Below, in pieces: positions 7,665 through 40,017 of a DNA stretch of 64,000 bases (positions are counted from its first letter, which is position 1; each line of letters begins with the position of its first letter). The position numbers and the translations under genes were made by a program. The notes under the pieces are model-generated. The model saw only the letters and a list, made by a program, of their open reading frames with translations. It made no database searches and had not been told where the DNA came from. The stretch is from assembly GCF_053078305.1 (NCBI RefSeq), contig NZ_CP166879.1; one strand, written 5' to 3'.

Positions 7665-8567
7665 TTATTGATAAACAAAAGTCACGCCAATAATCGATTG
7701 CACATTCCCTGCAGTCACCTGCCCTCCGGTACGTGCGTAATTTGCCGTTAATCCCAGACTTACCGCCGAAGTTCCTACTGCTCCTAACGATACCGTGTTA
7801 TTCGCTGGAATAATCGTACCGTTGCGCGTCAACTGTACGCCGACGCCCTGCGCTGGTGAAAACGACGCGGTATTGGTGAAAATCGAGTTGCCCGCATCTG
7901 CGGTTGTGCCGGAGAGGTAATACCCCAGGTTTTGGCTTTTCGCACAATAAACGGTAAGAGGAATTGGCACTGAACCAGGGTAGTCCGGCAGAGTAACAGT
8001 GACATCACGAGCAGAAACATCGCAGCCGCCAGTAGGCACCACCACATCATTATTGGCGTAAATATTCCACACAAACTGGAAATCATCGCTGTTATAGTTG
8101 TTGGTCTGTCGCAAAATAAGCACGGCAATTAATGAGCCAGCTTTAATCGCCACCCCGCCCGCACTGCTCACAGGCGTCAAATAAAGCGCCACCGGCCACG
8201 GCTTATCCGTTCTCGAATTATAAACAACCCGCGGCGTTTCGCTGGTGGTCGGAAATGGATAGCTACTGCCACTATATTTTACGGTCCCGGAAAAATTAGA
8301 TAACACGCCGCCATAAGCCGAGCCTCGTTGCAGTGTGACATAGTCTGTAATGGTTTCCGGATAATCGTTATGGCAAAAGATTTGCGTCGAAAGATCTACG
8401 ACCAGGTTTTGCCCCACATTCACGGCAGGCGCAAGGTTTACATAAACATTAGCGCTGCCACCGCCAATAGGGATAGCGGTACCATTGGCGGTTTTACAGG
8501 CGAATGACCAGGCATTTACCGACCAGCCCATCAGCAGTACAGCAAACAGGGTAATAACTCGTTTCAT
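7665..8567 (-). CDS. fimH: Type 1 fimbrial adhesin FimH (mannose-binding)
   Basis: 300 aa, signal peptide, FACKTANGTAIPIGGGSANVYVNLAP lectin-domain sequence. Confidence 0.96.
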   Translation of the reverse strand: MKRVITLFAVLLMGWSVNAWSFACKTANGTAIPIGGGSANVYVNLAPAVNVGQNLVVDLSTQIFCHNDYPETITDYVTLQRGSAYGGVLSNFSGTVKYSGSSYPFPTTSETPRVVYNSRTDKPWPVALYLTPVSSAGGVAIKAGSLIAVLILRQTNNYNSDDFQFVWNIYANNDVVVPTGGCDVSARDVTVTLPDYPGSVPIPLTVYCAKSQNLGYYLSGTTADAGNSIFTNTASFSPAQGVGVQLTRNGTIIPANNTVSLGAVGTSAVSLGLTANYARTGGQVTAGNVQSIIGVTFVYQ

Positions 8568-23049: not shown

Positions 23050-25320
23050 CTAATCATTTCCCTTACGAATATATGGGCCAAAAGCCCAAGAATCATAATA
23101 AGGGTGATGGACTAGTTTTTCATTAAATCGAACACTATAAGTTAATTTTTTTATATTTTTACGTACAGCATTAATACTGGGCAAAGAGGAAAGATAATCT
23201 ATAAACTTATCGATAGTGATTTCCCCTTCGCAACACTCAAACCCATCAATGATATTTTTCGCCATTTTTCCATTTTCATTTGTTTGATATATCACTCCAG
23301 GTATTCGTTGAAAAAAACTAGATAATGCATATTTGTCCGCTACATATGTATCATCCACATGATATTTCCCACCGAGCATAGTTGTAGTAACAATAAGCTT
23401 ATACACACCTTTGGGTTGCCATGTTGATGGTAGTTCGAATTCTTTAATGATCACATCAAGATGATTAAGATAATGTTCAGAAATTCGATTTATTTGTTGA
23501 AAATAAGAACGCATAAATTTATTATTATGATCATGTATTAATGAGCTATCTCCAACGATGTTACACACTTGCTGATAGTACTTACCATAATATATTGGTT
23601 GACCATTTGATTTTAGTTCTGTAAAAATCAAACAATCATCCAGGAGAATCACGCAATCGCACTGATAATTAGCATGAGCATCAATTGGAGAAGCTTTAAT
23701 CCCCGCATCACGAACTTGTTTTATAAATTGTTGCTCATGAAATCGCCCTTTACTTGCTTGAGAAATTTTTTTGGAACCAAATAATGACATTAGAGAGCGA
23801 GTCACTGAGCTATTTGCTATTAATGCAGGCATTAAGCATAAACCGTCCATACAGGGAATAAATGGGCAATCATTAAGATCATGTGATTTTGAATTGAAGG
23901 TAAAATAATCTATCAGTTTTTTTGCTGCATCTGCTGCAATCCCCTTACGTTGAAAGAATGATAACCAACTCTCACGGCTTTTTATGATCAGCCAGCGATC
24001 CAACTGTAGGGGTATAGGTTTTGTCGATGAAAATCTTTTGCTCATTTCTTCTTTAGATAACTCGACTAAACATTGATAAGCGTGCACCCAATTAAATAAT
24101 GATATATTCCCATATTCTTCATGAAGGTCATCAGGAGATATATTTTCCAACTCGCTTAGATGAAATGAGCTAAAAACGCCATCAGAATTTAAGTAAGATG
24201 GCATATGATCCTTTACCCAACTATTTAGATGAAAATGTTTGTTACTAAATTCATGAACTTCGCTATATAGATGTGACGCTCTCATCATTAGTCTATTTCT
24301 TGCAATCTCATAATCTCGGTATAAACAAAAACTATCAACCTCAAGAGAGTAAATGTTATTATCCAATTTTGTAAATACTGCACTACTTAGTCTGAAAAAG
24401 TCTCTTACTCTGCTTAATGAGTCAAAAACATTCCACTCATTAAGGTACCCTCCCATTGAAAGCAAGGTTTGTTTATTCACACAAGAAGTTAGTTTCAATG
24501 GCTCATGAGTCCGTAAATAAGAAAATATTCGTCCGGTGTAATTGGCTACCTCATCAAATGCCCTATCGATAACTCGAAAATATTCGATATCAGGTTCAGC
24601 ATGAATATTAATATTTTCAGAAACGATTACTCTGCTTAATGAGTCAAAAACATTCCACTCATTAAGGTACCCTCCCATTGAAAGCAAGGTTTGTTTATTC
24701 ACACAAGAAGTTAGTTTCAATGGCTCATGAGTCCGTAAATAAGAAAATATTCGTCCGGTGTAATTGGCTACCTCATCAAATGCCCTATCGATAACTCGAA
24801 AATATTCGATATCAGGTTCAGCATGAATATTAATATTTTCAGAAACGATAAATAATGGAAAAATCCTCTTCATTTTTTTAGGATCATTGACCACAACCAA
24901 GGATGATAATGATGATAAAAACATCTCACAAAACATGATGAGATTAAGTATTAATGCATGTGATTTTTTTGTATTTTTACGCCAAATACCAGCACATTTT
25001 GTAGCCGCAAAGAAAGAATTATTTATATCATGCATAATTTTACATTGACTCTCGAACTCAGAAATTAGTTCAATGTTATCAGGAAATGAGTTTACTAGCT
25101 CATTAATACATTTTTTGAATGTATTGTTATACTCAACTTCAGTCTGAACTGAAAATCTATTATAATAGATGGAAGATATTCTCAGCACATCCAAGGCGAT
25201 ATCTATACTAATATCATCTCTTTTTATGTACTCACAAAAAAAAGAACAAAACTGTTTCGGGTCGTTAGCAAGATTACTAATTCTAGTGGTATCATAAACT
25301 TTTTCCATTTTTCCATACAT
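23050..25320 (-). CDS. Hypothetical 756-aa AT-rich orphan protein; C-terminal region has a PD-(D/E)xK-like motif (CDCVILLDD...FTELK)
   Basis: Long uninterrupted ORF, low GC, no recognisable family; nuclease motif is inference only. Confidence 0.6.
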   Translation of the reverse strand: MYGKMEKVYDTTRISNLANDPKQFCSFFCEYIKRDDISIDIALDVLRISSIYYNRFSVQTEVEYNNTFKKCINELVNSFPDNIELISEFESQCKIMHDINNSFFAATKCAGIWRKNTKKSHALILNLIMFCEMFLSSLSSLVVVNDPKKMKRIFPLFIVSENINIHAEPDIEYFRVIDRAFDEVANYTGRIFSYLRTHEPLKLTSCVNKQTLLSMGGYLNEWNVFDSLSRVIVSENINIHAEPDIEYFRVIDRAFDEVANYTGRIFSYLRTHEPLKLTSCVNKQTLLSMGGYLNEWNVFDSLSRVRDFFRLSSAVFTKLDNNIYSLEVDSFCLYRDYEIARNRLMMRASHLYSEVHEFSNKHFHLNSWVKDHMPSYLNSDGVFSSFHLSELENISPDDLHEEYGNISLFNWVHAYQCLVELSKEEMSKRFSSTKPIPLQLDRWLIIKSRESWLSFFQRKGIAADAAKKLIDYFTFNSKSHDLNDCPFIPCMDGLCLMPALIANSSVTRSLMSLFGSKKISQASKGRFHEQQFIKQVRDAGIKASPIDAHANYQCDCVILLDDCLIFTELKSNGQPIYYGKYYQQVCNIVGDSSLIHDHNNKFMRSYFQQINRISEHYLNHLDVIIKEFELPSTWQPKGVYKLIVTTTMLGGKYHVDDTYVADKYALSSFFQRIPGVIYQTNENGKMAKNIIDGFECCEGEITIDKFIDYLSSLPSINAVRKNIKKLTYSVRFNEKLVHHPYYDSWAFGPYIRKGND
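24406..24849. repeat. Perfect tandem duplication of a 222-bp unit (2 copies) inside the 756-aa ORF, in frame (74-aa duplication)
   Basis: Identical DNA blocks beginning tactctgcttaatgagtcaaaaacattcc at 24406 and 24628; protein repeat VIVSENINIHAEPDIEYFRV... x2. Confidence 0.9.
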
Positions 25321-25996
25321 CCTATTGTCTAAATTACTATAAAACTAGCCACTTAACTAATAATTATAAATTTCATCTTTTACACCTTGCATTTTTATAA
25401 CCAATGAAATCTACAACAAGCAACTGATGGATAATCCGATATTGGTCGCATTTAATGGCATGGTAGCAAAGTTTTCATCACATACCTCCTTTGCACCAGA
25501 ATAAACGCCAGAGATCTGAAATTGCGAGTACACTACAGAAATTGTACTGCTGGTCCCATCAGCATAAAACCATAGTTACACAGGTAATCATCATTATTCG
25601 CCAAGATAATAAATATTATTCGGTAGAATAGCGTTCTCAGGTGGTCAGTAAAATTGTCTTCAACAAGATGTCTGCGCATCTCGTCTGCTAGCCCTACATA
25701 ACTGCTCTCGACCGAAACTATTTATTGAATGTTCACCAAGGTGGGCGTGGAGACAAAATGACGTCTTTTGATATTAGCTACCTGAGCCACATGGTCAAAA
25801 CGTTCAAGTAGCATAGCGAAACCACCCTGCCCACGTAATGTGGACGATGCAGCTTCCAGCCAGAGCAAACTTGGGACCATCGACTACAAAATGAAGAATA
25901 CTGAACTGCTTTTCTGGCAGGCCTATATACTGCACGGATATGGGTGATTTCAGACACAAAAAAAGCCGCCCTTGAGCGACTCGATTTGCATACGGT

Positions 25997-26020
25997 GTGG
26001 TGCGAAGGCCGGACTCGAAC
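25997..26020. repeat. Direct repeat of leuX 3' end (attachment-site repeat) marking the distal boundary of the P4-like element
   Basis: tggtgcgaaggccggactcgaac matches leuX 3' end tggtgccgaaggccggactcgaac (38719-38742) at 23/24. Confidence 0.8.
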
Positions 26021-26285
26021 ATTTAATTAAACAACTGTATTTAAATAGTTTTTGTATTTAAAAATGAATTGATGCCCCTTTTTGTGCCCCCATTACCAAA
26101 ATAACAACCTAACCTTGTACTAAAAAAGAGATTTTTCAATGTAGGCACTCTGGTTCGGCTACGCTTACCGGAGACGAACCTGAACATAAGAAATCTGAGA
26201 TAACTTCATAGTAATCATCTTTAACACTTTTGACCAATAATATCTATCATAAAGGCAGAGAAATTAATCTCTGCCTTTATTAAGG

Positions 26286-27154
26286 TCACATAAAAAGATT
26301 ATTAATTAGAGTACACTGTTGACATCCATTAATATCTACAGCTTTTAAAAAATCTGTGTTACTAATCAAAACAGCATTACTAACACCTGAAAACTGCAGC
26401 TGTGCATACATACCTAAGATAGATTTTTTTTCGTAATACTGAGATCTTCCTGTATAACTTTCACCAGTATTAGAACTTATAAATCGCCTCGTTCTTTCTT
26501 GTATCAATAAATTATTTTTAAGGAAGCTCAAAATATCTTGCTGCAATTGTTTGTTTTTGTTATGAAAATAACATAACAATTGATCCTCTAAGGTACCAAG
26601 CTGAGTGTTAACGTCATGAAAAATATACCCCCCCATTCACTCCCATTAAACTCAATAATACTTCCATTGGAGAGTTGAGTAGTATCTTCTAAACCTATCT
26701 CATTTTTAATCTCTGTTATTCTGGCATCAATGCCAAGTTCATCAGCATCAAAAAAATATAAAAATCTATATGCAATTTCTATACTGAAGTCATCTGTACC
26801 AGAAAGTTCTTTATACATAGTGACTAACTCAGCCCTTTCACGACTTCTGCCATCACCATTTAGATTATGTATAAAAATTAAGTTCCCGTTATGATAGAAA
26901 CAAACAGAAGGTAGTTTTGGCCCGTTTGGCTGAAAGCCAAGTTTTTTATCTGGAATTCTTACTTGACTTAGTTCTTTTTCAAAGCGTTTATCAAACGGTG
27001 GAGGTAATTGACCAATTTTAAGATCTTGAAGTTGGAATCCATTAACTAAAAGAATTCTGCTAAGAAAAGCGACGTCATGCTGTCCTTCACAAAAGGCAAC
27101 TATGACTCTATTATAAGATACACTCACAATTTTAGCCTCTAATATCAAGATCAA
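26286..27154 (-). CDS. Toprim-like (OLD/DUF4435-like) putative nuclease partner, split into two overlapping frames (188 aa + 116 aa) by a frameshift at a G7 homopolymer (26628-26634)
   Basis: Candidate Toprim acidic residues (CEGQHD ... FFDADE); the two frames join if the run were G8; start ambiguous (TTG at 27154 or GTG at 27127 preceded by GAGG). Confidence 0.5.
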
Positions 27155-29369
27155 TATTTTTTATCAAATAGCCAAATCTTTCGCCATCAGCCCTTTTCAC
27201 TACTACTTTATCGTCAACTTTGCTTAACTGAAATCCAGTAATGCAATCATTATTATAATCATTATTTAAAAAAGCTCTGATACATTCACCCGAATGTGAC
27301 GTAAGGAACACTTGCACATTGAAACGTTCTGCAAGTTGTTGCGTAAATTTAGTAAACTCCAATAGTAAACTATAATGAATCGCAGTTTCAAATTCATCAA
27401 TAAAAAGTACACCGTTACGACATGCAGCAAAAGATAAAGCTATATAAAAGATGCGCTGAATACCCTCTCCATAAGAAGTAAGATCGAAACTTCTGTTAAA
27501 ATCATATGCTGATTCTACGATAAACCTTTTGAGCTCCATGTCTTCAGTAAATCTGACATCTTTTATCGTTGGCTCAATTTTATTCATGAATTCAATAACA
27601 AGGCCGATAGCGGATTGTATATTTAAATCATCTGATTCTGAGTCAGTTACAGACGTTAAATTTGCACCTATACTTTTGTTATAATCAGTGAGCAAATCGT
27701 CTATATCGTAGAAATAAGGGCTTTTAAATGACGATGAACACAAATGCGAAACTTGATCAGCGTTCCTTCTCATACGTTCATGGATAAAAGTATGGACTGT
27801 GTTATTTCTAAATTCTCCATCAATGCTAGACTTTAAGCTATAAGATGCTATATAGTCATCTTGTTTATCAATTGAAGAATCATCATATTTAATCATTTCA
27901 ACAGTAACATTACTATCATCAAATACTCCTGACAAGATTATTTTATCTTGGAAAAGAGCATTTAGCAATGTTGGACTCAAAGTACTGATTTTATTTTTTT
28001 GCCTAATAAGATTAAAATGCGATGAAATATCATTACGCTGCGTCAATAAGTAAATTGCTTCAAGCAATGAAGTTTTTCCAGCATTATTAAAGCCAGCAAT
28101 GATATTAATCTTATTGAAATTATCCAATGAGAAGTTTTTAAAGAATTTATATTTTTTGATATAAATGGATTTAAAATGTTTTTTTACTCCATACTCAAAA
28201 TTAGTTGTATAGTTTCCTCCTTCGATATTTATAGCCATCTGCTTTGGCATTATTTGTGTTAGTTTTTCTTTTGCATCATCTAATAAGCGCAAATCCTCTT
28301 GGTTTATGAGGCTACTATATAGATTTAAATCCTTTAAGGCGTCTTCAAGCTTGCTTAAAGCATTTTTATAGTTTTGCTGATTTACTGAACCGCTCGCAGC
28401 TAATCCTCTTGCAAGGCTACGTTCATCCTCCATTACCTTCAAGGCTTTTTCATTATTGATGAACAAAGCAAGATCTCGTATCTCAAGAGATTTAGTAATT
28501 ATAGGTTCTAGCTCAACGTATTCACCATTACTTTCCTCTTCAATATCATCTTCTAGCTCATTTTTCTCAAGGTATTCATCTGTTTTAGAGATCCACGAAA
28601 AAAGCCTATCAAGATTCACTAAATTTCTAGCATAATAACCGTTATCACTCCAGTCTAACCAAGATTTAATTACAGGCTTTTTGATTATTTCTTCAAAAAT
28701 ACCAAACATACTTGGTTCGAATTGCTCACCATACTCACTTGTTTTATATAAGGAAATTAGATTATAAACTCTAAGCATAGAGCGAAGACGCGTTTTAGAA
28801 ATACCGAGCGAACTAACTAGCTCATCTTCTTTTTCAACATACTCATCTCGAGTTTTGTCTTCATATGGTTTTAAAAAATCATAAAGCAGTTTGGACTGAT
28901 TATATGTTGACCACTTTTTATTACCACTTATATGCTTTAATCCCATTACAATCAGATGTTTTTCAACATCTTGATTATTATGGATTTCGAAAGGAACACT
29001 TCTAAAAATAGATGGATCTAGTTTTCCAATATCAAACCCCTTTTCATATGCTTCTTGCAATGCTTTCAGCGCCGTTACACGACGATTTCCCTCAAGGACT
29101 AAATAATTGTTATCTCCTAAATCCTTTACTTGAATAACATCAACATCTAAGTATCCATTAGATTTAAAACTTGCTATTAGATCTTTGATATTCTCTTGTC
29201 TATTTCCTTCTATAAAAAAGCGAGTCCTACGCTGAATTGTTGGATCTAGCATGTCCTTTTCTGAGACTGGCTTGTGCTGGTCATTGTCAACAAAACGGTA
29301 GTTATTAGGATCTAGAAATAAATTTTTTAAATTTTTGCTAATGCGCGGGCGAATTTGCTCGACATTCAT
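27132..29369 (-). CDS. ParB/Srx-like N-terminal domain fused to ABC-type (AAA_15/21, OLD/AriA-like) ATPase; putative anti-phage defence ATPase
   Basis: N-terminal LVLEGNRRVTALKAL (ParB GxRR-like); C-terminal Walker A GFNNAGKTS, signature-like SYGEG, Walker B VLFIDEFE, H-loop TSHS; GAGGTGA RBS before ATG. Confidence 0.65.
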   Translation of the reverse strand: MNVEQIRPRISKNLKNLFLDPNNYRFVDNDQHKPVSEKDMLDPTIQRRTRFFIEGNRQENIKDLIASFKSNGYLDVDVIQVKDLGDNNYLVLEGNRRVTALKALQEAYEKGFDIGKLDPSIFRSVPFEIHNNQDVEKHLIVMGLKHISGNKKWSTYNQSKLLYDFLKPYEDKTRDEYVEKEDELVSSLGISKTRLRSMLRVYNLISLYKTSEYGEQFEPSMFGIFEEIIKKPVIKSWLDWSDNGYYARNLVNLDRLFSWISKTDEYLEKNELEDDIEEESNGEYVELEPIITKSLEIRDLALFINNEKALKVMEDERSLARGLAASGSVNQQNYKNALSKLEDALKDLNLYSSLINQEDLRLLDDAKEKLTQIMPKQMAINIEGGNYTTNFEYGVKKHFKSIYIKKYKFFKNFSLDNFNKINIIAGFNNAGKTSLLEAIYLLTQRNDISSHFNLIRQKNKISTLSPTLLNALFQDKIILSGVFDDSNVTVEMIKYDDSSIDKQDDYIASYSLKSSIDGEFRNNTVHTFIHERMRRNADQVSHLCSSSFKSPYFYDIDDLLTDYNKSIGANLTSVTDSESDDLNIQSAIGLVIEFMNKIEPTIKDVRFTEDMELKRFIVESAYDFNRSFDLTSYGEGIQRIFYIALSFAACRNGVLFIDEFETAIHYSLLLEFTKFTQQLAERFNVQVFLTSHSGECIRAFLNNDYNNDCITGFQLSKVDDKVVVKRADGERFGYLIKNIDLDIRG

Positions 29370-29634
29370 ATGTCACCTCAATGGTGTAGGAACTATACAA
29401 TGCAACTTTACTTGATACCTCAGCAATCAACAACTTCATGTTTTTGAAACTAAGCGCGCGCAGCCCCGCACGCCTGCCCGCTTCGCTTAACAGACTGGTT
29501 TTCATGCACCTCATAAATCGTCTCAGAAGCCACCAAACAAGGGTTTTCTCGTCAAAAATGGTGCATAAGACTCATGCGTTTTCATGCGCCATAGACATGC
29601 ACTCATTCGCTCTCATGCCAGCCAGGAAAAGGGG

Positions 29635-29662
29635 ATAAAAAATCCCGGTACTGGACCGGGAT
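29635..29662 (-). terminator. Rho-independent terminator after the delta/Ogr gene
   Basis: Stem atcccggt-loop-accgggat followed by T-run on the minus strand. Confidence 0.55.
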
Positions 29663-29682
29663 TACGTGGGCGTTCTTTCTAA

Positions 29683-29964
29683 TCAGACAGGAATCTGCTG
29701 ACGGCTTGACAGTTTTGACGCGGAGCCATAGCGATTAAGTGTTTGCTGTTGTTTTTCCGGGGATTGTGCTTTGTCTGATAGCTGTTCATTGCGTCGGGGT
29801 TTCATGATTATCTTATCCACACTCTCCAGTGCCGTAAATGTGCAGGAACATTCCAGATTCTGGCACTGATACCACGAGCGTTTAACTGACGGAGCTTCAT
29901 AGGCTGCTGTTCTGGCGTGTGCAACTGTACCGCATTCCGGACATTTAAGTGCCATTAATATCAC
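29683..29964 (-). CDS. Ogr/Delta-family zinc-finger late-gene activator
   Basis: MALKCPECGTVAHARTAAYEA...WYQCQNLECSCTF matches the Ogr C4 zinc-finger pattern. Confidence 0.8.
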   Translation of the reverse strand: MILMALKCPECGTVAHARTAAYEAPSVKRSWYQCQNLECSCTFTALESVDKIIMKPRRNEQLSDKAQSPEKQQQTLNRYGSASKLSSRQQIPV

Positions 29965-30512
29965 TCCTGTATATCGTTAATGTCATTCAGGCGTTGCTGA
30001 AAACGCAGATGTTGTGCCGGGGTGTAAGAGCCCTGGCAATCACGAATCATCCCGGGGTCAGGCATCAAACCGGATTCATCCAGGATCTCACGATAATCCC
30101 CGGCAATTTCAGGCGGTGTTATTGTCAGCTGGCGAACCAGAGCACTGCGTAATATACGGGACGCAACGTCAACCCCTCCGCGCCCCTTCAGGAACGGAGC
30201 CAGTGCAGATGTCAGGGCTGCCCCATTCGCCTGCATAAAATTGCTGAGAGCGGCTTCTGTGCAGGCTTCCATCAGTAAATGCTGCGAGTAAATGCATTCG
30301 CGCGCAGCACAGTTAATTTGCCATTTCAGCACATCCAGACGTTCCCGCAGTAATTCGAGCTGTCGGGCATAATCTGCTGGTTTTTCTGTGGCAGCGAGGA
30401 GAGATGCTATCTGTTGTTCAACGGCTTTTCGGCTCTCACTATGTCCGGCCCACAGAATACGGGCATTCCGAAAACTGGTAAGTGCCTGGTCAGGCGTGCC
30501 TCGGGCCGTCAT
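29961..30512 (-). CDS. P4-like late-operon protein (tentatively Psu-like)
   Basis: 183-aa helical protein in late operon between Sid-like and delta genes; assignment by size and position only. Confidence 0.4.
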   Translation of the reverse strand: MTARGTPDQALTSFRNARILWAGHSESRKAVEQQIASLLAATEKPADYARQLELLRERLDVLKWQINCAARECIYSQHLLMEACTEAALSNFMQANGAALTSALAPFLKGRGGVDVASRILRSALVRQLTITPPEIAGDYREILDESGLMPDPGMIRDCQGSYTPAQHLRFQQRLNDINDIQE

Positions 30513-31252
30513 ACTGCTTTCTCCTTCTCAGCAAGTTCCTGACGAACCTTAATTTTATGCATAGCTGCCGGAGAGAGTTGATTACTGAAATCCAGACGCG
30601 CCGCATAATCCGGGGCAATTCCCGCCAGTTTAAACACCGGGTCCTGTTCAGGCATCGCATCGTTAGCCAGAGCCGGTCTGGTGATATGTTTATGAATAAA
30701 GTCTTTCAGCACTGTGTCCGGGTCATTAACTGAATTCACCACACCCACAACGGCACTGGCTTCCCGGCCCATTGTGGATTTAAGCAGGCTCAGCGTCTGA
30801 ATAAGCGCTTTTCCATGCGATTGCATAAAATCTTCCCAGATTTGTTTTGCGCGAATATCCACAAGAATGTTATGCGCGTGGATATACTTTCCGGCTAATT
30901 CCGCAGCTTTCTGCGGCAAAAGTGCATTTTCGCTTTCCTGAGCCGCCAGCAGCTCATCAAAATCCTCAAGCGTTTCTCGTCCCAGCGCAATTTCCGTGCG
31001 CAGTTTTTTCATTTCCTTTGAAACCACGCCCTGACTTTCACGAAACAGCGTGCGCCACTCCTCATTCAGTGTGTTCGTCGTGGCTTCCATCTCAGCGCGA
31101 CGCTGGCGGATTGTCGCAATATTATCCGCTGCCGCTTTCTGCTGACGACGTGCTTCAAGCCATGCGTTTCTGGCTGTGTTCATGGTTTCCAGTGCCCGCT
31201 GCGTTACAGCCGGAAAAGTGGAAAGGTTGTTATTCACTGCGGTGTTGTTCAT
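30509..31252 (-). CDS. P4-like late-operon protein (tentatively Sid-like capsid size-determination scaffold)
   Basis: 247-aa helical/coiled-coil-like protein, first gene of late operon; assignment by size and position only. Confidence 0.4.
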   Translation of the reverse strand: MNNTAVNNNLSTFPAVTQRALETMNTARNAWLEARRQQKAAADNIATIRQRRAEMEATTNTLNEEWRTLFRESQGVVSKEMKKLRTEIALGRETLEDFDELLAAQESENALLPQKAAELAGKYIHAHNILVDIRAKQIWEDFMQSHGKALIQTLSLLKSTMGREASAVVGVVNSVNDPDTVLKDFIHKHITRPALANDAMPEQDPVFKLAGIAPDYAARLDFSNQLSPAAMHKIKVRQELAEKEKAV

Positions 31253-31430
31253 GGCTTCTCCTGTCGGGTTGGTTCGTTACGTCAATTGTGTCGTGGCTGA
31301 CACAAGCACACTATCGGTGCTCAGTGTGTGGTGGCTGGCACAACGGGCGCTTGCGGTTATTCAGACGTGGCTATGAAAGCCAGCCAGATAAAAATGCCCT
31401 CAGTTTCAGTCTGCTTTATGTCCCTGATGC

Positions 31431-31618
31431 GGTGGAACAGGTGAAACATGTGTTACAGCTTTGTTTTATAAAGCACTTATATACACTGCACCGGTGGAAC
31501 ATCGCGGGTAACAAGGTGGAACAGCGGATTGGCTGGCGTTACATCTGTTCCACCTCACTATTTCAGAAGGTGGAACAGGTTCAGCCCTGTAAAATACGGT
31601 TGTTCCACCTGTTTCACC
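31431..31618. repeat. Iteron array (GGTGGAACA / TGTTCCACC, at least 7 copies in both orientations); probable P4-type ori/crr alpha-binding sites
   Basis: Repeats read directly downstream of the alpha gene; resemble the P4 TGTTCACC iteron. Confidence 0.6.
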
Positions 31619-31652
31619 TGTTACCCTTAATAAATAAGACTCACGCAAAGCC

Positions 31653-34325
31653 TTAACCCGGCACCTCGCTGTTGAAGACATAGAGCCTGCGGGGATTCAT
31701 CTCTGGCGGGCGAATGGTTGTCTGGAGTTTGCCATCAGTGGAGGGCAGCAGGTATCCACGATCTGCGCACAGACGAGCCACCTTGCGCGGGTCAAATCCC
31801 CTGCAGATTTCTTTCCAGCCGGACGGCATGACATAGAACGTAGTGACAGCTTCCGTGCCCTGCGCGGTACTGCCTTTCTCCACCCTGCGCCAGCCCACCA
31901 TATTGCCGGGGCGGTTGCGCTCGTCATACCAGTCTGCAAAGCGGCTGTACTGATTCGCGGTAAAGAAACTGCGAACCTGCTCCAGTGCGGCAATATCTTC
32001 CTGATTGGCGGTGTGCCCGCGATCTTTCAGCCATGCGTTCAGGCAGACGCGGGTTGCCCGCAGTGCTTCACCCTCAGGCCAGCCGGTGATACCCAGACGG
32101 GTTGCCAGTTCACCCGCCATCGCCACCAGTGCAAAGCGATTCACAGCCCGGCCCACCTGGTTGCCTGCATCTTTCGGAGTCAGGGCGGCAGCATATTCCT
32201 TCATCAGCGATTTTGCCTGTGCCGTTAGTCCGTTAAGATCAGCGGTCAGTGCTTTCAGCCACTCCCGGAACGGCGAACCGTAGTAGCAGGACGTGGCCCA
32301 TTCAAGATGCTCTGCCAGAGCCTTGCCGCTGTCGAAGCCGTGCAGCTCCTCAAAAACGCCAAACTTCCCGGAATCGCTGGGGATCTGGATCATCCTGACT
32401 TCCATCCCGGCAAAAGTACGCTCACCGGCCTTTGCCGCATGTTCGGTCAGAGATAACTCGCCAGTTGAAAAGAACAACAGGCGCCACTGCTTACGGGTAC
32501 GCAGCTCACCGTCCGTACCGGCACGACCCTTGCCCTGACCGTTTGCCAGCATGTAGGCGATACTGCCTGCCTCGCGTCCGTCAACTTCCCGGATCTCATC
32601 AAGCATCATGGCGGCATCGTTGCGGCGGCTGGCGCATCCCTCCAGCGCGTTGCCGGTGGCCCGCCATGTCTGCCAGTAGTCAGGCCCGCCGCAGACGGAG
32701 GTTGCCGCTTTCATGGTGGTGGTCTTACCGTCTGTCGATTCCCCTTTGAGGTGGTAGCCGCCGCCGTCCATACCAACCAGCCGTAACAGTGGTGCAGCAA
32801 AGGCCAGGCTGACAGCAAATGCCACGCGGGAGTTGCCGGTACAGTAGCGGGATACGTTCTCCCGCCATTCCTCTGTTGTACCCGACACGCGGAAATCACG
32901 CCCCTGCACGGAAGTGGTCTGGAGAATGACACCCTCTGCACCTTCACCGCTGACCTCATCCTGCAGGACGTAAACCTGACCATGCCAGCCAGTACGGCTG
33001 ACGCAGGTCACGCGGCGTTCCGGTTTACACAGTGAGATATATTCCATCAGGCGTGCGCGTGCCTCACCGGTGGTGCTGATATAAGACAGCCCGTTAACCA
33101 GCAGTACCCGGCGCAGTTCCTCACCACTGCCGCTCAGCATTTCCATCGGCATCGCCCAGCGGCGACGCTCACCCCATGTATCTTCCCATTCCAGCAGTCG
33201 TCCGAAGTTACCGCCATCGGCATCGCAGGTGATTGCCGTAACGCGCAGCGGGCTGCATATTTTGACGTTCTGGATCTCCGTCTCACCGTTGCGCTGTACC
33301 TGCTTTTCATACCAGAGATATTCCTGGGTAAGACGGAACCCGTGCGGCAGTTGCGTGCGGCCTTCCCCGCACAGTACCAGACCGTTGCGAAAGACTTCAC
33401 GGGCACGGGTAATACCGTGCTCCCGATGAAAGTCATTCCAGTCAGCCTTAATCTCTCCTGGTGGCAGCGTCATCCAGCCGCCAACAGCTTTTGCCGCCCG
33501 TTCAGCAAAGGCTCTGCCGGGATTCTCCCCCCCGTCCTGAAAATCGTTATCACCGGCGATGATAATTTTTACCTCAGGCCAGCGTGCCCGCAGCGACTGC
33601 GCCACATTGGGCAGGTTGCCCGCAGATATGGCAGCCACTACGCATCCGGCAGTGAGCTGGCTTACCGTCAGCGCCGTAGCGTAACCTTCGGTAATCACCA
33701 CCTGTACCGGTGGTTCAGACGGTAACGGGCTGAGCGACACAAACGCGCCTTTCATCGTGCTGCCGGGCAGTATGCTTTTTTCACCCGTCGGGGCGATAAG
33801 CTGTGCACCGGTCACGGCTCCGGTGTTGGTCGTGAGTGGTAACAGCAGAGAACCGGCAGGAAAATCCTTACCGCTGATATGCTGCACGCTTCCGGTCAGA
33901 GAGGCTGGGTATCCGGCGAACCCTTTTCCTGTCAGATAGGCGCTTTCTCCCGTGTGGCTCTCTTTCATCAGCGCCGCCACGGTAAGACCCATGTCGCGTT
34001 TAGGGGCTTTTTGTCTGGCAGGCTTAACAGGCAGTTCCTGCACATCCGGCACATTAAGCATCTGCGCCACCTCCTGCGCAGCCTTTCTGACGCTGTAACC
34101 GGTTACGAGCTTAACCAGATCCAGACCGTCACCATTGCCACACTGGCTGCAGATCCACGTCCCGCGCCCGTCAAGGTCATCAAGGCGAAAACGATCCTTG
34201 CCCCCACATTTCGGGCAGGGACCGTGCCTGCCGTTTTCAGGTACATCAATACGCAGCATCTGCAGAATAACGGGCCATTTCCCCCGCGCGGCGGCTGAAA
34301 TCTGCGTAACCGTCTGTATTGTCAT
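31653..34325 (-). CDS. P4 alpha-like primase/helicase replication protein
   Basis: 890 aa; N-terminal Cys-rich zinc-binding region (CPKCGG...CSQCGN), ATP-binding GESTDGKTT motif. Confidence 0.8.
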   Translation of the reverse strand: MTIQTVTQISAAARGKWPVILQMLRIDVPENGRHGPCPKCGGKDRFRLDDLDGRGTWICSQCGNGDGLDLVKLVTGYSVRKAAQEVAQMLNVPDVQELPVKPARQKAPKRDMGLTVAALMKESHTGESAYLTGKGFAGYPASLTGSVQHISGKDFPAGSLLLPLTTNTGAVTGAQLIAPTGEKSILPGSTMKGAFVSLSPLPSEPPVQVVITEGYATALTVSQLTAGCVVAAISAGNLPNVAQSLRARWPEVKIIIAGDNDFQDGGENPGRAFAERAAKAVGGWMTLPPGEIKADWNDFHREHGITRAREVFRNGLVLCGEGRTQLPHGFRLTQEYLWYEKQVQRNGETEIQNVKICSPLRVTAITCDADGGNFGRLLEWEDTWGERRRWAMPMEMLSGSGEELRRVLLVNGLSYISTTGEARARLMEYISLCKPERRVTCVSRTGWHGQVYVLQDEVSGEGAEGVILQTTSVQGRDFRVSGTTEEWRENVSRYCTGNSRVAFAVSLAFAAPLLRLVGMDGGGYHLKGESTDGKTTTMKAATSVCGGPDYWQTWRATGNALEGCASRRNDAAMMLDEIREVDGREAGSIAYMLANGQGKGRAGTDGELRTRKQWRLLFFSTGELSLTEHAAKAGERTFAGMEVRMIQIPSDSGKFGVFEELHGFDSGKALAEHLEWATSCYYGSPFREWLKALTADLNGLTAQAKSLMKEYAAALTPKDAGNQVGRAVNRFALVAMAGELATRLGITGWPEGEALRATRVCLNAWLKDRGHTANQEDIAALEQVRSFFTANQYSRFADWYDERNRPGNMVGWRRVEKGSTAQGTEAVTTFYVMPSGWKEICRGFDPRKVARLCADRGYLLPSTDGKLQTTIRPPEMNPRRLYVFNSEVPG

Positions 34326-34705
34326 ACTTCCCCCTGATACAACGTCACACCGGTACTGCAGAAGTCATCAAAGGCCGCCGGAAGCGTGCGGTACATCTCC
34401 GCCATCACTTCACAGCCGCGCGCGGTCAGTACCGGCGGCGCGGTCAGCAGTGACGGCTCCAGCATGTCAGTCAGCAGTGCCAGCGCGGCAGCGGCGCCCT
34501 GTGCTTCGCCGTACTCGTTAATCAGTGCGCACTCGATATGCAGCGCAATGGCCATTTCAATACGCTCCACCGTCAGGCTGTGCGGACCATACTGATCACT
34601 GCCAGTTTCGTTCAGCATTTTCTGCCGCCATGCTGAAGCAATAGCCCGTCGGTAAAGCGCGGTGGTCATTTCTGCCGGGAAAATGGAAACCTGCGGCTGG
34701 TTCAT
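34322..34705 (-). CDS. Hypothetical P4-like early protein
   Basis: 127-aa ORF overlapping alpha start by 4 nt (translational coupling). Confidence 0.5.
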   Translation of the reverse strand: MNQPQVSIFPAEMTTALYRRAIASAWRQKMLNETGSDQYGPHSLTVERIEMAIALHIECALINEYGEAQGAAAALALLTDMLEPSLLTAPPVLTARGCEVMAEMYRTLPAAFDDFCSTGVTLYQGEV

Positions 34706-34986
34706 CTGGCACCTCCTTCAATCAGTGCGCAGCTGTGTGCAATATCCGTCAAATCTGCCCGCAGGTACTCCATCAGCGCGGCGACACCAGGCGCACAGCC
34801 TGCGTCCAGTGCTCCGGCCTGAGACGGGTATTCAGAAAAGAGAAGCTGGAGCATGTCGCAGGCATTTCTTGCGCGGATCAGCTTTCCGAAACCGTCCTCT
34901 GACAACCCATAGGCAAAAGCACCGGTATTGTGTTTTTCAGGCAAAGTGTGGCCCTGAGCACCGTTGTGCCCGTTTGAAATATTCAT
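34702..34986 (-). CDS. Hypothetical P4-like early protein
   Basis: 94-aa ORF overlapping the next gene by 4 nt. Confidence 0.45.
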   Translation of the reverse strand: MNISNGHNGAQGHTLPEKHNTGAFAYGLSEDGFGKLIRARNACDMLQLLFSEYPSQAGALDAGCAPGVAALMEYLRADLTDIAHSCALIEGGAR

Positions 34987-35017
34987 CGTGAATTACTCCG
35001 TTTTCAGCGGTATTTTG

Positions 35018-35407
35018 TCAGAGAAACTTTGAATAGTGACCGTCGTCAGGCTCAGCAGAACGCCGTATGGTACGCTCCCGCCAGCGGATAAATAGCACAG
35101 ACGGATGCAGTGTCAGCGGGCCGGAACCACTACTGCCTGCAGGAGCTGGTGCAGGCTTAAAGAGCGGTACATCAAACAGGCGCGTATACCGCTGTTCAAA
35201 CCATGCCAGAGGGCAGGAAGAAAGCTGGTTGTCGCTGTCATGACGTATCAGCACTTCACAGCTGAATTCAGGATTAACCAGCGCCACAGAGGGCGAGGCT
35301 TCTATTAATCGGATAATCGTGACCGTCCAGCCACGTTCATGCCGCCAGCGTTCGCCGGGGTGCGGATAATTACGCATGTTCACCTCCGCAGGGAATGCGC
35401 CCGGCAA
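35018..35407 (-). CDS. Hypothetical P4-like early protein (true start possibly the internal Met at ~35377)
   Basis: 129-aa ORF in the same early-operon orientation. Confidence 0.4.
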   Translation of the reverse strand: MPGAFPAEVNMRNYPHPGERWRHERGWTVTIIRLIEASPSVALVNPEFSCEVLIRHDSDNQLSSCPLAWFEQRYTRLFDVPLFKPAPAPAGSSGSGPLTLHPSVLFIRWRERTIRRSAEPDDGHYSKFL

Positions 35408-35621
35408 AGCTCAGTACACAGTCCGGGGCAAGTCTGCGCCGCGCTGACCGCTCATTATCTGCGGTGAGCCTTAACATCACAGGACGGGCATTGCGTTGAC
35501 TGCGGTTGATCGCCGCAAATAACCAGGTACACTTCTGTTTAGCCATCTTCGTTACCTCATATAGCGGATTGGTCAGAAGCCCGGTTAGTGTTGCTGCACT
35601 GTCGGGCTTCGCACTCACAAG

Positions 35622-35713
35622 GTGAATCGCACCTTTAATTTTAAAGCTACCCTTAAGTGAATCGCACTTCAAGCTTTTTATTATCATTTTTTTTGCGTAT
35701 ACTGAATCGCACC
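35622..35713. promoter_or_regulatory. Three direct repeats of GTGAATCGCAC (35622, 35657, 35702) in the divergent control region; putative operator
   Basis: Repeats read directly upstream of the 61-aa + strand ORF and the early operon. Confidence 0.45.
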
Positions 35714-35733
35714 TAACGCGAGGAGATCCAGTA

Positions 35734-35919
35734 ATGGCAACGAGTTCAACTAACAACAAGTCGCAGCAACTTAATGCTCGTTTCCCACATGATGTAGTTG
35801 CAGAATTAGAAAGCAACCTTGAAGATGGAGAAACGAAAGCGCAATTCATTGTTACTGCTGTAAAAGGCGAGATTAAACGCCGACAGCGCAGGAAAAATAA
35901 GCCAGAGCAAGGAAGTTGA
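35734..35919 (+). CDS. Small basic protein (61 aa), possible DNA-binding regulator
   Basis: ORF with GAGGAG RBS; basic C-terminus (IKRRQRRKNK); no family verified. Confidence 0.4.
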   Translation: MATSSTNNKSQQLNARFPHDVVAELESNLEDGETKAQFIVTAVKGEIKRRQRRKNKPEQGS

Positions 35920-36030
35920 ATAGAGAAGCCAACAGACGTTCTCTCTGGTCCCATGTTAATTTCAGTAAGCGACAATATTTTTAAGCCCACAAATTCATTA
36001 TGTCGGGCTTTTTTATTAGTGATTTTCATA

Positions 36031-36246
36031 TCACTCACCACGAGAGGCATATATTTGCTCTTGAATCCAGTGATCAACTTCGCTTTCAACGAATGAAATT
36101 GCACGAGTTCCTATTTTCACCGGACGGGGAAATGTATTGTTTGCAAGCTGTTTGTAAAGCCATGCCTTGCTACGCTGAACGCGTCTTAATACCTCTTTTG
36201 CTGAGATAAGAGTCTGATTATCTGAAAAGCTGTTTGCATATTCCAT
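36031..36246 (-). CDS. alpA: AlpA-family phage transcriptional regulator / excisionase-like protein
   Basis: ...ISAKEVLRRVQRSKAWLYKQLANNTFPRPVKIGTRAISFVESEVDHWI AlpA-like HTH. Confidence 0.75.
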   Translation of the reverse strand: MEYANSFSDNQTLISAKEVLRRVQRSKAWLYKQLANNTFPRPVKIGTRAISFVESEVDHWIQEQIYASRGE

Positions 36247-36622
36247 CTTGTTACTCCGTGTTCTACTTAAGTTCACGGTGACTTTAAACACTGGGAAAAA
36301 GTGATTCTAGTGATAATGGAATCTATTAAGACAAACATTGATTCTATTGAAAAACAATAATCTCCACTGAAAAAAAGAAGTAATATTCATATGAAAGAAC
36401 ACGGAAAGAAGGAAATGCACAAAACAATAAAATTAATAAAATTCATATAGATAGGATGGAAAATCAAAAAATCATACGTCAAAAGGTATTATTACATTTT
36501 AACGATTCATATTACCTAGGAATTAGCACAGTATTACACCGTATTACATCGTATTACCCCCTATAGCCCCTTAGAGCCTCTTGTGGCCCTTCTATTGAGA
36601 GATAGCCAGAAAATTAATAAAT

Positions 36623-37261
36623 TCACTCTCCGTATTTTATAATGTCTTTCCCCAGCTTTATTTTCTTATAAAACGTAGCTTTTTTAATCCCTTTCATTAG
36701 AATCTCATTCTCATTACAAAAAGAAACAATATCATTATATATAACACTATTATCGCTATAACTTACCTTTCCATGTCTCTTAAGCAATTCAATTAGTAAA
36801 TAAATTAATTTACAACTATAATTATCCTCATCATCTTTTCTGTACTGCCCTCTACCATTACTCCTTAATTTTTTACCAACTTCACATAATTCACTTCCTC
36901 CTAACGTCATTAGAATATCGCTCCAATCTTTATTTTTTACCTGTTGTCGTAATGCGTTCTCAATTCTCTCCTTAATCTCCACAGGTACAATACCTTCCCT
37001 CTGAAAGATATAAGCAGCAGTTAATAATAAGTTCGCCTCCACTTTTTGCGTGGCGGATACGTTTTTATATTCATTAATTAATTGTAGATTTCTGGTTATT
37101 GCCTTTCTTAATCTAATAACCTCTTTTAATTGAACCTCAGTCAATTCATCATTTTCGGTATCATAGTCAAAACCATTCATAGCAAGCGCCACTTCGTGTG
37201 GCGTTATGTAAGTTAACCTATTAAAATAAAACAAATTATTATCAAATTGAGTATTGTTCAT
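36623..37261 (-). CDS. Hypothetical AT-rich protein (212 aa) between integrase and alpA; possible accessory cargo
   Basis: Clean ORF, low GC, no recognised motifs. Confidence 0.5.
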   Translation of the reverse strand: MNNTQFDNNLFYFNRLTYITPHEVALAMNGFDYDTENDELTEVQLKEVIRLRKAITRNLQLINEYKNVSATQKVEANLLLTAAYIFQREGIVPVEIKERIENALRQQVKNKDWSDILMTLGGSELCEVGKKLRSNGRGQYRKDDEDNYSCKLIYLLIELLKRHGKVSYSDNSVIYNDIVSFCNENEILMKGIKKATFYKKIKLGKDIIKYGE

Positions 37262-37290
37262 TTAAATCTCTCCGCAGCCCCCAATGGTAA

Positions 37291-38553
37291 TTATTTTCCA
37301 TGCATACGCGCAAAATCATATGGTGTGATAGATCCATTCTTATTAGCATCAATATAATCAGCCCACCATTGCAACATTAATCTTCTTTCTTCAAGATATT
37401 CGGAAGTATGCATATATGAACCTTTCACGTTTTTTCGTTCAACGTGGCTTAACTGTCTTTCAATGGCATCATCATTCCATAGTTTCGACTCACTTAGCGC
37501 ACCACGCGCCATAGTTCTAAACCCATGACCACATACTTCAGTTTTCGTATCATATCCCATTACACGTAAGGCGTTATTTACTGTATTTTCACTCATTACT
37601 TTTTTAGGATCATGATCGCTGGGAAATATAACCTCACCTTTACCACTCAAGGCATGTAAACGTTTAAAAATATCAAATGCTTGTTTGCTAAGCGGAACAA
37701 TATGTTCAGTTTTCATCTTCATCCCACGCTCAGAGTGTTTTACGCCGGGAATAGGCTTACGAATTCCGGGTATTGTCCACTCGCTTCGTTCAAAGTTAAC
37801 CTCACTCCAGCGAGCAAAACGCATCTCACTTGAACGTATAAATGTGAGTAGCGTTAATTCAACGGCAAGCCGTGTCATTAGTCGCCCTTTATAGCGTGAT
37901 AGTCTTTCAAGAAGCTCAGGAATTCTTTTTGGGGGTAGTGCTGGGTGGTGGGTTGCTTTAACGCTTAAAAGCGCTCCAGCCATATCGCATGCAGGATTTG
38001 ATTCAAGCAGGTCATTCTGCACACCAAAACGCATAATTGCGGTTACGCGCTGCATCAGTCGCTGCGCGACATCATGTTTACCTGCCGTATCGACAGCTTT
38101 GATTGGATTGAGAAGCTGGCTGGTTCTCAACGTTCTGGCATCGATTTGACCTATCGAGGGGAAAATATACTGCTCAAGTGTCAGCAGAACACGACGGCTA
38201 TGATCTTCGCTCCAAGTAAGGTTACTTGCGTGCCATTGCCTTGCGATAGTTTCAAATAAATATGCCCCCTCAATTTCAGCTTGTGCCCCCTTTTGCTCAG
38301 CTTTGGGGTCAATACCCTGAGACAACAATTTCTTTGCTGCATCGCGCTTACCCCGCGCTTCAGCCAAAGTGACAGTCGGGTATACACCAAAAGCGAGTCG
38401 ATCTTCCTTTTTGTCAGAGGGGCGGCGATATTTCATGCGCCAGTACTTAGAACCTTTAGGGGAGACCTCAAGATACAAGCCGCCTCCATCAGCCATTTTA
38501 TAAGCTTTCTCTTTCGGCTTTGCGGTCTCTATCTGGCGAGCGTTGAGTTTCAT
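37291..38553 (-). CDS. P4-type tyrosine integrase
   Basis: N-terminus MKLNARQIETAKPKEKAYKMADGGGLYLEV...; immediately adjacent to leuX. Confidence 0.9.
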   Translation of the reverse strand: MKLNARQIETAKPKEKAYKMADGGGLYLEVSPKGSKYWRMKYRRPSDKKEDRLAFGVYPTVTLAEARGKRDAAKKLLSQGIDPKAEQKGAQAEIEGAYLFETIARQWHASNLTWSEDHSRRVLLTLEQYIFPSIGQIDARTLRTSQLLNPIKAVDTAGKHDVAQRLMQRVTAIMRFGVQNDLLESNPACDMAGALLSVKATHHPALPPKRIPELLERLSRYKGRLMTRLAVELTLLTFIRSSEMRFARWSEVNFERSEWTIPGIRKPIPGVKHSERGMKMKTEHIVPLSKQAFDIFKRLHALSGKGEVIFPSDHDPKKVMSENTVNNALRVMGYDTKTEVCGHGFRTMARGALSESKLWNDDAIERQLSHVERKNVKGSYMHTSEYLEERRLMLQWWADYIDANKNGSITPYDFARMHGK

Positions 38554-38718
38554 TTTGGGGGCACAAATCCTCATCGAATTGACATGCCCCCGATTATGCC
38601 CCCAAAAGAGGGTAGACTACAAGAGACCAACAAAGACCATTAGATACCATACTTTACTTGTTTTTTAAGGATTTTTTTGTATTTAGAGACTTCAGGAAAC
38701 GTCAAAAGAAGTGTTAAT

Positions 38719-38803
38719 GGTGCCGAAGGCCGGACTCGAACCGGCACGTATTTCTACGGTTGATTTTGAATCAACTGCGTCTACCGATTTCGCCACTTCG
38801 GCA
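38719..38803 (-). tRNA. leuX: tRNA-Leu (anticodon CAA)
   Basis: Minus-strand GCCGAAGTGGCGAAATCGGTAGACGCAGTTGATTCAAAATCAACCGTAGAAATACGTGCCGGTTCGAGTCCGGCCTTCGGCACCA; 85 nt with CCA end. Confidence 0.93.
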
Positions 38804-38997
38804 CTGAAGAGGTATGCGGAAAACGTTGTGGATTATACCTGTCGCACGCCACCATGCAAGCGCCAGCTTGCTCGCACCTCGCTAAGTGCTGAAATTTTCA
38901 GCATTGCATACAGCGATGTGTAACCTTTGTCACACTCCAGGCACCCCTCCCTGCCATGCTCTACACTTCCCAGACAACACCAGAGAAGGACCAAAAA

Positions 38998-40017
38998 ATG
39001 TCGATGATAAAAAGCTATGCCGCAAAAGAAGCGGGCGGCGAACTGGAACTTTATGAGTACGATCCCGGTGAATTGAAGCCACAAGATGTTGAAGTGCAGG
39101 TGGATTACTGCGGGATCTGCCATTCCGATCTGTCGATGATCGACAACGAATGGGGATTTTCACAATATCCACTGGTTGCCGGGCATGAGGTGATTGGTCG
39201 CGTAGTGGCGCTCGGGAGTGCCGCGCAGGATAAAGGTTTGCAGGTCGGTCAGCGTGTCGGGATTGGCTGGACGGCACGCAGCTGCGGGCATTGCGATGCC
39301 TGTATTAGCGGTAATCAGATCAACTGCGAGCAAGGTGCGGTGCCGACGATTTTGAATCGCGGCGGTTTTGCCGAGAAGTTGCGTGCGGACTGGCAATGGG
39401 TAATCCCACTGCCAGAAAATATCGACATTGAATCTGCTGGGCCGCTGTTGTGCGGCGGTATCACGGTCTTTAAACCACTGTTGATGCACCATATCACTGC
39501 CACCAGCCGCGTCGGCGTGATTGGTATTGGCGGGCTGGGGCATATCGCTATAAAACTTCTGCACGCAATGGGATGCGAGGTGACAGCCTTTAGTTCTAAT
39601 CCGGCGAAAGAGCAGGAAGTACTGGCGATGGGTGCCGATAAAGTGGTGAATAGCCGCGATCCGCAGGCACTGAAAACTCTGGCGGGGCAGTTTGATCTCA
39701 TTATCAATACTGTGAACGTCAGCCTCGACTGGCAGCCTTATTTTGAGGCGCTGACCTATGGCGGTAATTTCCATACGGTCGGTGCGGTTCTCACGCCGCT
39801 GTCTGTTCCGGCCTTTACGTTAATTGCGGGCGACCGCAGCATCTCTGGTTCTGCTACCGGCACGCCTTATGAGCTGCGAAAGCTGATGCGCTTTGCCGCC
39901 CGTAGCAAGGTTGCGCCGACCACCGAACTGTTCCCGATGTCGAAAATTAACGACGCCATCCAGCATGTGCGCGACGGTAAGGCGCGTTACCGCGTGGTGT
40001 TGAAAGCCGATTTTTGA
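38998..40017 (+). CDS. ahr: NADPH-dependent aldehyde reductase Ahr (zinc-type alcohol dehydrogenase)
   Basis: Start at [20 protein letters not shown] and CGICHSD zinc-ADH motifs. Confidence 0.92.

Follow-up and report, generated by a model that had tools for sequence, protein, structure and literature searches.

A single iteron array beside an alpha primase-helicase gene as the probable replication origin of a P4-like satellite

Almost half of E. coli genomes are reported to carry P4-like satellites (PMC8628076), and the surveys of them in the searchable literature use gene-based definitions, with no mention of origins or iterons. In this report we focused on a window of 64,000 nucleotides—the whole stretch of DNA that was analyzed, from contig NZ_CP166879.1 of assembly GCF_053078305.1—in which a dense cluster of short repeats lies next to the gene for an alpha-type primase. 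The question raised by this locus is whether the cluster is an origin of replication, an accessory site or something else, and which protein would recognize it. As discussed below, by analogy with characterized satellites we consider, with a probability of roughly 0.8, that the array serves a P4-like satellite as its origin of replication.

The nature of the element carrying the array can be settled first. Two copies of an 18-bp direct repeat of a tRNA 3' end bound an element of ~12.7 kb, one (38724-38741) within the 3' end of tRNA-Leu(CAA) (38718-38802) and the other, CGAAGGCCGGACTCGAAC, at 26003-26020. From the integrase to delta, the genes between them are on a single strand, the minus strand of the window, and comprise in order a tyrosine integrase gene adjoining tRNA-Leu(CAA) (37291-38574), small genes, alpha (31653-34325, 890 aa, annotated as a "TOPRIM and DUF927 domain-containing protein"), a sid-like gene (30509-31252), psu (29961-30512) and delta, encoding an ogr/Delta-like zinc finger (29683-29964). 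The array sits in a 400-bp gap between two minus-strand genes, alpha upstream and the sid-like gene downstream. Its boundary on the sid side (low window coordinates) is marked by a Psid-like late promoter region outside the array (31287-31342, minus strand), in which two TGT-N12-ACA dyads (31287-31304 and 31325-31342) align with both dyads of P4 Psid; we take these dyads to be the Delta/Ogr sites of P2/P4 late promoters, and the low-coordinate end of the array is ~90 bp from the first of them. Since an integrase, an alpha-like primase, sid, psu, delta and att repeats at a tRNA gene are all present, together with the Psid-like dyads, the array-bearing element is a P4-like satellite. Its gene order is unlike that of P4: psu comes before delta and the array lies between alpha and sid on one strand, whereas in P4 the alpha operon is divergent from sid-delta-psu and int is located beyond crr.

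P4-like satellites carry anti-phage defense hotspots, and the variable region after delta (26286-29369) encodes a candidate defense system, PDC-M38. Its A protein is full length (745 aa). Its B protein is split into ORFs of 188 aa and 116 aa, each matching one half of the same profile, a pattern that suggests a frameshift. Just outside the satellite att site, an exact 222-bp tandem duplication (24405-24848, two copies, 100% identical) falls within a 756-aa minus-strand ORF (23050-25320). In E. coli 504211 (NZ_CP025865.1, our locus L002), a 281-bp segment consisting of the alpha 3' end and the array is 100% identical to that of the window. That element adjoins tRNA-Arg with a different integrase neighborhood, whereas the window element adjoins tRNA-Leu (37291-38802), and the comparison suggests that the integration module has been exchanged.

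The array itself is sharply defined. Counted on both strands, the word GGTGGAACA/TGTTCCACC occurs in six exact copies in the 64-kb window, all within 31431-31618 (31431, 31493, 31515 and 31569 on the plus strand, 31546 and 31601 on the minus strand), where 0.40 would be expected by chance. Allowing R at position 5 (GGTGRAACA) adds two GGTGAAACA/TGTTTCACC copies at 31440 (plus) and 31610 (minus), for a total of eight in the window against 0.96 expected, a count that no shuffle reaches. All eight of these strict units (five plus-strand, three minus-strand) are inside 31431-31618. When one mismatch is allowed, the extra matches in the window are scattered singles at chance level. The first-pass annotation had placed this dense, two-orientation array exactly, and just downstream of alpha as we find it, 26 nt past the stop codon (31653-31655). 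Its figure of at least seven copies was slightly too high for the exact word, which is present six times, and is reached only with the two variants, which bring the number to eight. Alignment with related arrays adds four further degenerate units at conserved positions. With eight strict and four degenerate units, the putative origin is an array of ~12 unit positions (31431-31626, minus strand), in a register shared with its relatives.

How are these units arranged? Read on the alpha-sense (minus) strand, there are three tandem units that repeat every 9 bp and are directed away from alpha, then one inverted unit, two direct units, three inverted units, an AT-rich stretch, a degenerate GTAACA unit and two inverted tandem units. 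The alpha-proximal tandem triplet (31601-31626, minus strand) consists of GGGTAACA (31619-31626), which is kept in classes A, B and D of the related arrays described below, GGTGAAACA (31610-31618) and GGTGGAACA (31601-31609). It is followed by a single GGTGGAACA unit in inverted orientation relative to the triplet (31569-31577, plus strand), by a pair on the minus strand (31537-31554) made of GGTGGAACA (31546-31554) and the degenerate GATGTAACG (31537-31545), which reads GGTGGAACG in close relatives, and by three plus-strand units (31493-31523), GGTGGAACA (31493-31501), GGGTAACA (31506-31513) and GGTGGAACA (31515-31523). The AT-rich spacer (31449-31492, 44 bp, ~33% G+C) is a candidate DNA-unwinding element. 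The 30-mer of lowest stability in the surrounding 1 kb (31454-31483) falls within this spacer, the first 9 bp of which (31449-31457) are the conserved degenerate unit containing GTAACA. The far end is a distal tandem pair, GGTGGAACA and GGTGAAACA, again with a 9-bp period (31431-31448, plus strand). With three units to one side of it and ~9 to the other, the AT-rich stretch does not lie in the middle of the array. The two outer segments, 31431-31448 and 31601-31618, form an imperfect 18-bp inverted repeat that is 89% complementary, in which the order of the 9-mers is swapped between the arms. As for other kinds of element, an Rfam gathering scan of 24000-39500 gave tRNA only, which sets aside an RNA element, and a simple scan revealed neither a terminator nor a sigma-70 promoter within the array. 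At an identity of at least 90%, the class-A array occupies 332 places across 325 E. coli genomes, a few of which have two copies.

The protein expected to recognize the array has an unusual architecture. The first-pass annotation had called the gene an alpha primase gene, a name that fits P4 alpha in the primase part and not in the rest. BLASTP against P4 alpha aligns only aa 5-316, corresponding to the zinc ribbon and TOPRIM primase, with 37% identity. Pfam identifies Zn_Ribbon_Prim, Toprim_3 and DUF927 in the 890-aa protein, whereas in P4 alpha the primase is followed by D5_N, DUF5906 and Pox_D5. When a profile built from 20 homologues is compared with the PDB, the ATPase core of the helicase finds its matches in two solved structures, 8tch (SaPIbov1 Rep) and 5dgk (Cch, the helicase of SCCmec). 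The last part of the protein, aa 790-890 (31656-31958, minus strand), is a predicted winged-helix origin-binding domain, with a predicted recognition helix at ~aa 846-855 and a wing at ~aa 866-884; the AlphaFold model of the last 101 aa is a winged helix with a pLDDT of 88.6. This C-terminal domain matches the winged helix of SaPIbov1 Rep, with which sequence identity is only ~12-13%. The P4 origin-binding domain is absent from both of its structural match lists, and the P4 C-terminus scores a probability of 0.2% in hhalign. There are 272 representative relatives of the last 101 aa. In the full-length matches examined (at least 500 aa), the matching segment is at or near the C-terminus, and DUF927 is present in 10/10 sampled relatives. 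Pfam HTH_56, the HTH domain of Cch, gives weak matches in 17/45 aligned members, with an E value of 0.038, below threshold, for the window alpha. Judged from these domain matches and models, alpha combines a primase of the P4 type with a helicase of the SaPI type and a SaPIbov1-Rep-like winged helix, and the 890-aa protein is the predicted initiator, helicase and primase of the satellite.

The array also accompanies related alpha genes. Loci with a homologous alpha (57-100% identity) were collected from reference genomes (43, Enterobacterales) and from IMG/VR (50), and 88 were usable. An array is found downstream of alpha in 88/88 of them, starting in most cases ~25-45 nt past the stop codon and roughly 40-90 nt further in three loci (L031, L090 and L092). 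In three others (L032, L041 and L091), a wider scan places the array ~1.1 kb downstream of alpha, past an inserted recombinase gene; the same scan rules out that L032 and L041 have no array. The inserted gene, a 338-aa tyrosine recombinase at 6690-7706 in L032, extends over the alpha stop codon and stands between alpha and the array in all three. The L032 array belongs to class G, with the word GTGGGAACA, and retains the standard layout. The layout common to the loci consists of two to three tandem units with a 9-bp period, single or paired units of alternating orientation, AT-rich DNA, and two to three tandem units in the opposite orientation.

The iteron words of the usable loci fall into at least seven classes, namely class A, that of the window (AGGTGGAACAG), class B (AGGTGTAACAG), class C ((A/C)TGGTAACA), class D (GGGTAACA), class E (GCGGTTACA), class F (palindromic TACTACATGTAGTA) and class G (GTGGGAACAG). 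These words are highly concentrated, with 242 occurrences in 12 kb of arrays and four in 350 kb of flanks. In alignments of class A, B and D arrays from close elements, the units are in register and the spacers have diverged. Classes A and B differ by a single base that is altered in every copy, the class-B unit being GGTGTAACA where class A has GGTGGAACA. Variable columns amount to 7/97 in units and 27/100 in spacers for class A, and to 3/97 and 53/101, respectively, for class B, the unit columns being defined from the same sequences. Comparative data of this kind point to selection on the iteron units. Two Pantoea genomes each contain two satellites with different iteron classes, A with B in P. 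stewartii CCUG 26359 (L004 and L015) and B with C in Pantoea sp. AS-PWVM4 (L007 and L020). The presence of different classes in co-resident satellites fits incompatibility-driven diversification, in two cases only. Pantoea sp. AS-PWVM4 L020 also has ~16 CAGGAG repeats 1.6 kb downstream of alpha (~7700-8000), which are unrelated to the iterons.

A further finding is that the word class tracks substitutions in the predicted winged helix. In three pairs of near-identical alphas with different words (L042/L019, L024/L025 and L022/L023), nucleotide divergence climbs over the 100-200 nt at the 3' end of alpha, is highest in the array and drops beyond it. Such a profile fits a cassette made of an origin-binding domain plus its iterons. 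Between L042 and L019, 7/16 protein differences fall in aa 845-880, where same-class pairs of similar divergence show 0-3. Across different-class pairs the wing region is enriched for substitutions, with an odds ratio of 2.4 in these related and non-independent sequences, and substitutions are seen at aa 847 and 851, where the predicted recognition helix begins, and at aa 866-870, in the first strand of the wing. In a set of 36 distinct winged-helix variants, which are phylogenetically non-independent, one wing residue is Lys in 15/15 of those from classes A, B and D and Arg in 21/21 of those from classes C, E, F and G. Some class-A alphas vary within the wing with the word unchanged, and a one-to-one residue-to-base recognition code could not be derived beyond this Lys/Arg split. 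We propose from these patterns that iteron word and winged helix are a matched specificity pair, represented here by GGTGGAACA with a Lys-type wing. The suggestion in the first-pass annotation of a distinct alpha specificity is supported by the covariation of at least seven words with the alpha C-terminal domain. The most variable part of alpha between close relatives is aa 1-200 (33726-34325), consisting of the zinc ribbon and a linker, which is ~70% identical between classes A and B while the helicase is 96-99% identical; since this region also differs between the two classes, the N-terminal 200 aa may contribute to word specificity.

These observations can be taken one step further, although we put this forward tentatively and at somewhat worse than even odds. 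The satellites with a DUF927 alpha could be a family of replicons that exchange their origin specificity as one cassette, consisting of the array and the ~100-200 nt at the 3' end of alpha (the ~35-aa wing region). The result would be at least seven origin specificities orthogonal to one another, some of them one base apart per iteron, with a single cis site sufficing. If so, co-resident satellites would replicate without cross-talk, in effect as incompatibility groups for phage satellites.

What would the array do as an origin? The successive steps of binding, melting, double-hexamer loading and replication are inferred by analogy with P4 alpha, SaPI Rep and PICI Pri-Rep. Upon induction, the 890-aa protein would assemble as hexamers, and its C-terminal winged-helix domains would bind the 9-bp iterons. 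Because the iteron sets are oppositely oriented, the expectation is that two helicase rings facing opposite ways are loaded around the 44-bp AT-rich stretch, which they would melt. The DUF927 (MCM-like) helicase would then unwind the DNA, and the N-terminal zinc-ribbon/TOPRIM primase of the same polypeptide would make primers for the host polymerase.

The alternative that survives best, though we regard it as unlikely, is that the array is only a crr-like cis enhancer and that replication starts elsewhere in the element, for example inside alpha or near the early promoter, at a sequence without these words. P4 needs both ori and crr, with crr in exactly this position after alpha. A P4 "replicon II", the subject of a 2006 paper by Magnoni et al. 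that is cited in PMC6092414, reportedly uses an alternative origin. A partner site of this sort, the presence of which elsewhere in the element would have spoken against the first-pass annotation, was looked for. Neither the word at one mismatch nor relaxed words revealed a second iteron cluster within the att-bounded 12.7-kb element, and the class words revealed none in 37 relatives for ~4 kb to each side of alpha, so a second, crr-like cluster built from such words was discarded. In addition, the initiator resembles SaPI Rep, and replicons of the SaPI type rely on one origin next to rep (PMC9371898), which makes a crr-only role less likely; relative to Psid, the array is also placed like P4 ori. 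With a single cluster in the element, the array is probably the origin itself rather than a partner of the crr type. The ori/crr-like replication element originally proposed is retained in the sense that the array is the best candidate cis site, and revised in that one cluster is more likely an origin proper than a crr.

Slightly less probable again is a role mainly in transcriptional control and not as an origin, with alpha or another satellite protein gating read-through into sid-psu-delta or modulating the Psid-like promoter. The position of the array between co-oriented operons, ~90 bp upstream of the Delta-type sites, would suit such a role, as would our failure to find an intrinsic terminator between alpha and sid. 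However, L032, L041 and L091 keep the layout beside an unrelated downstream gene, the word co-varies with the C-terminal domain of the initiator, and opposite tandem ends with an AT-rich stretch are a known origin design. A regulatory side-effect of initiator binding on sid read-through is in any case compatible with origin function. Finally, that the repeats are a chance or decaying feature without function, for which only the degenerate units speak, can be dismissed for practical purposes, considering that 0/100 shuffles reach the count of six exact copies, that an array at least 90% identical is found in 325/5426 complete E. coli genomes as well as at every usable related locus, and that conservation is far higher in units than in spacers.

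The replication-origin reading has several implications. Iteron origins adjoining satellite initiators are already well known, and the general picture of satellite replication is unchanged by this array. The form seen here, which combines a chimeric alpha, a single SaPI/PICI-style origin in a P4-like satellite and iteron classes matched to a winged helix, is undescribed in the searchable literature, where we found no paper linking P4-like elements with DUF927 and where searches with the iteron words returned unrelated primer sequences only. The array marks a type of replicon whose primase is of the P4 kind and whose helicase and origin-binding domain are of the SaPI kind, and it allows origin specificity to be approached at the level of sequence. 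Should they be confirmed, the iteron/winged-helix classes could be used to type satellite replicons, to predict which satellites coexist or cross-activate, and for orthogonal P4-cosmid delivery vectors.

Comparison with P4 shows both similarities and differences. Both satellites have sid, psu, delta and a Psid-like promoter, both are integrated at tRNA-Leu, and the primase parts of their alpha proteins are homologous. In the P4 record X51522, crr is directly after alpha and ori is between ORF88 and sid, and since the Psid regions align, the position of our array matches that of crr relative to alpha and that of ori relative to Psid. The P4 type 1 repeat, which builds both ori and crr, is TGTTCACC/GGTGAACA(G) according to the annotation and sequence of X51522. 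The first-pass annotation had given this octamer correctly, and the unit in the array is one base longer, as it had stated. The P4 word GGTGAACA(G) resembles GGTG[G/A]AACA(G) here, and P4 crr also has tandem units at 9-bp spacing. The main differences are that the unit is 8 bp in P4 and 9 bp here, exact TGTTCACC occurring four times in the window, at chance level, and never in the array; that P4 has ori and crr several kb apart, in contrast to a single cluster; that P4 alpha has D5_N/DUF5906/Pox_D5 in place of DUF927 and a SaPIbov1-Rep-like winged helix; and that the alpha operon is here co-oriented with sid-psu-delta. Because the helicase and origin-binding parts belong to another family than those of P4, the likeness between this word and the P4 octamer is not explicable by a shared binding domain. 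Similar words recur with origin-binding domains that show no detectable relation: P4 (GGTGAACAG, L001 9310-9413) and EcCICFT073 (GGTAGACAG, L047 12010-12240) both have Pox_D5-type initiators, and the DUF927/winged-helix satellites (window 31431-31626 and relatives) use the close words GGTGGAACAG, GGTGTAACAG and GTGGGAACAG. This similarity may reflect shared origin ancestry, convergence or chance.

The closest parallels in design are with SaPI and PICI origins, whose layout the array shares as far as can be judged from its sequence. In SaPIs, the C-terminal winged helix of Rep binds 6-12 iterons located directly 3' of rep, these iterons flank an AT-rich region in opposite orientations, and origin specificity resides in the C-terminal domain (PMC9371898, PMC7581432). 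Likewise, the helicase of the window alpha is of the SaPI/Cch family (8tch and 5dgk profile matches) and ends in a predicted winged-helix fold, the array is immediately 3' of the initiator-helicase gene, and its short iterons number at least six, two or more of them lying on either side of an AT-rich region and facing opposite ways. The window element differs from SaPIs in its Gram-negative host and P4-like hijacking module, in the P4-like fusion of a primase (zinc ribbon and TOPRIM) to the helicase, in iterons of 9 bp rather than 5-6 bp, and in an AT-rich stretch that is off-centre instead of central as in the SaPI description. The SaPI design is shared by the origins of Gram-negative PICIs, for one of which, EcCICFT073, a rep-ori segment was tested on a plasmid (PMC6092414). 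EcCICFT073 has capsid genes and lacks sid, psu and delta, and its Pri-Rep is of the P4 type (D5_N/DUF5906/Pox_D5) without the zinc-ribbon/TOPRIM part. Nevertheless, it is also an E. coli satellite in which a primase-helicase gene is followed by an iteron origin, with 9-bp-spaced tandem units directly behind the stop codon and, beyond them, inverted units and AT-rich DNA ahead of these, and its word GGTAGACAG resembles those of satellites of the window type.
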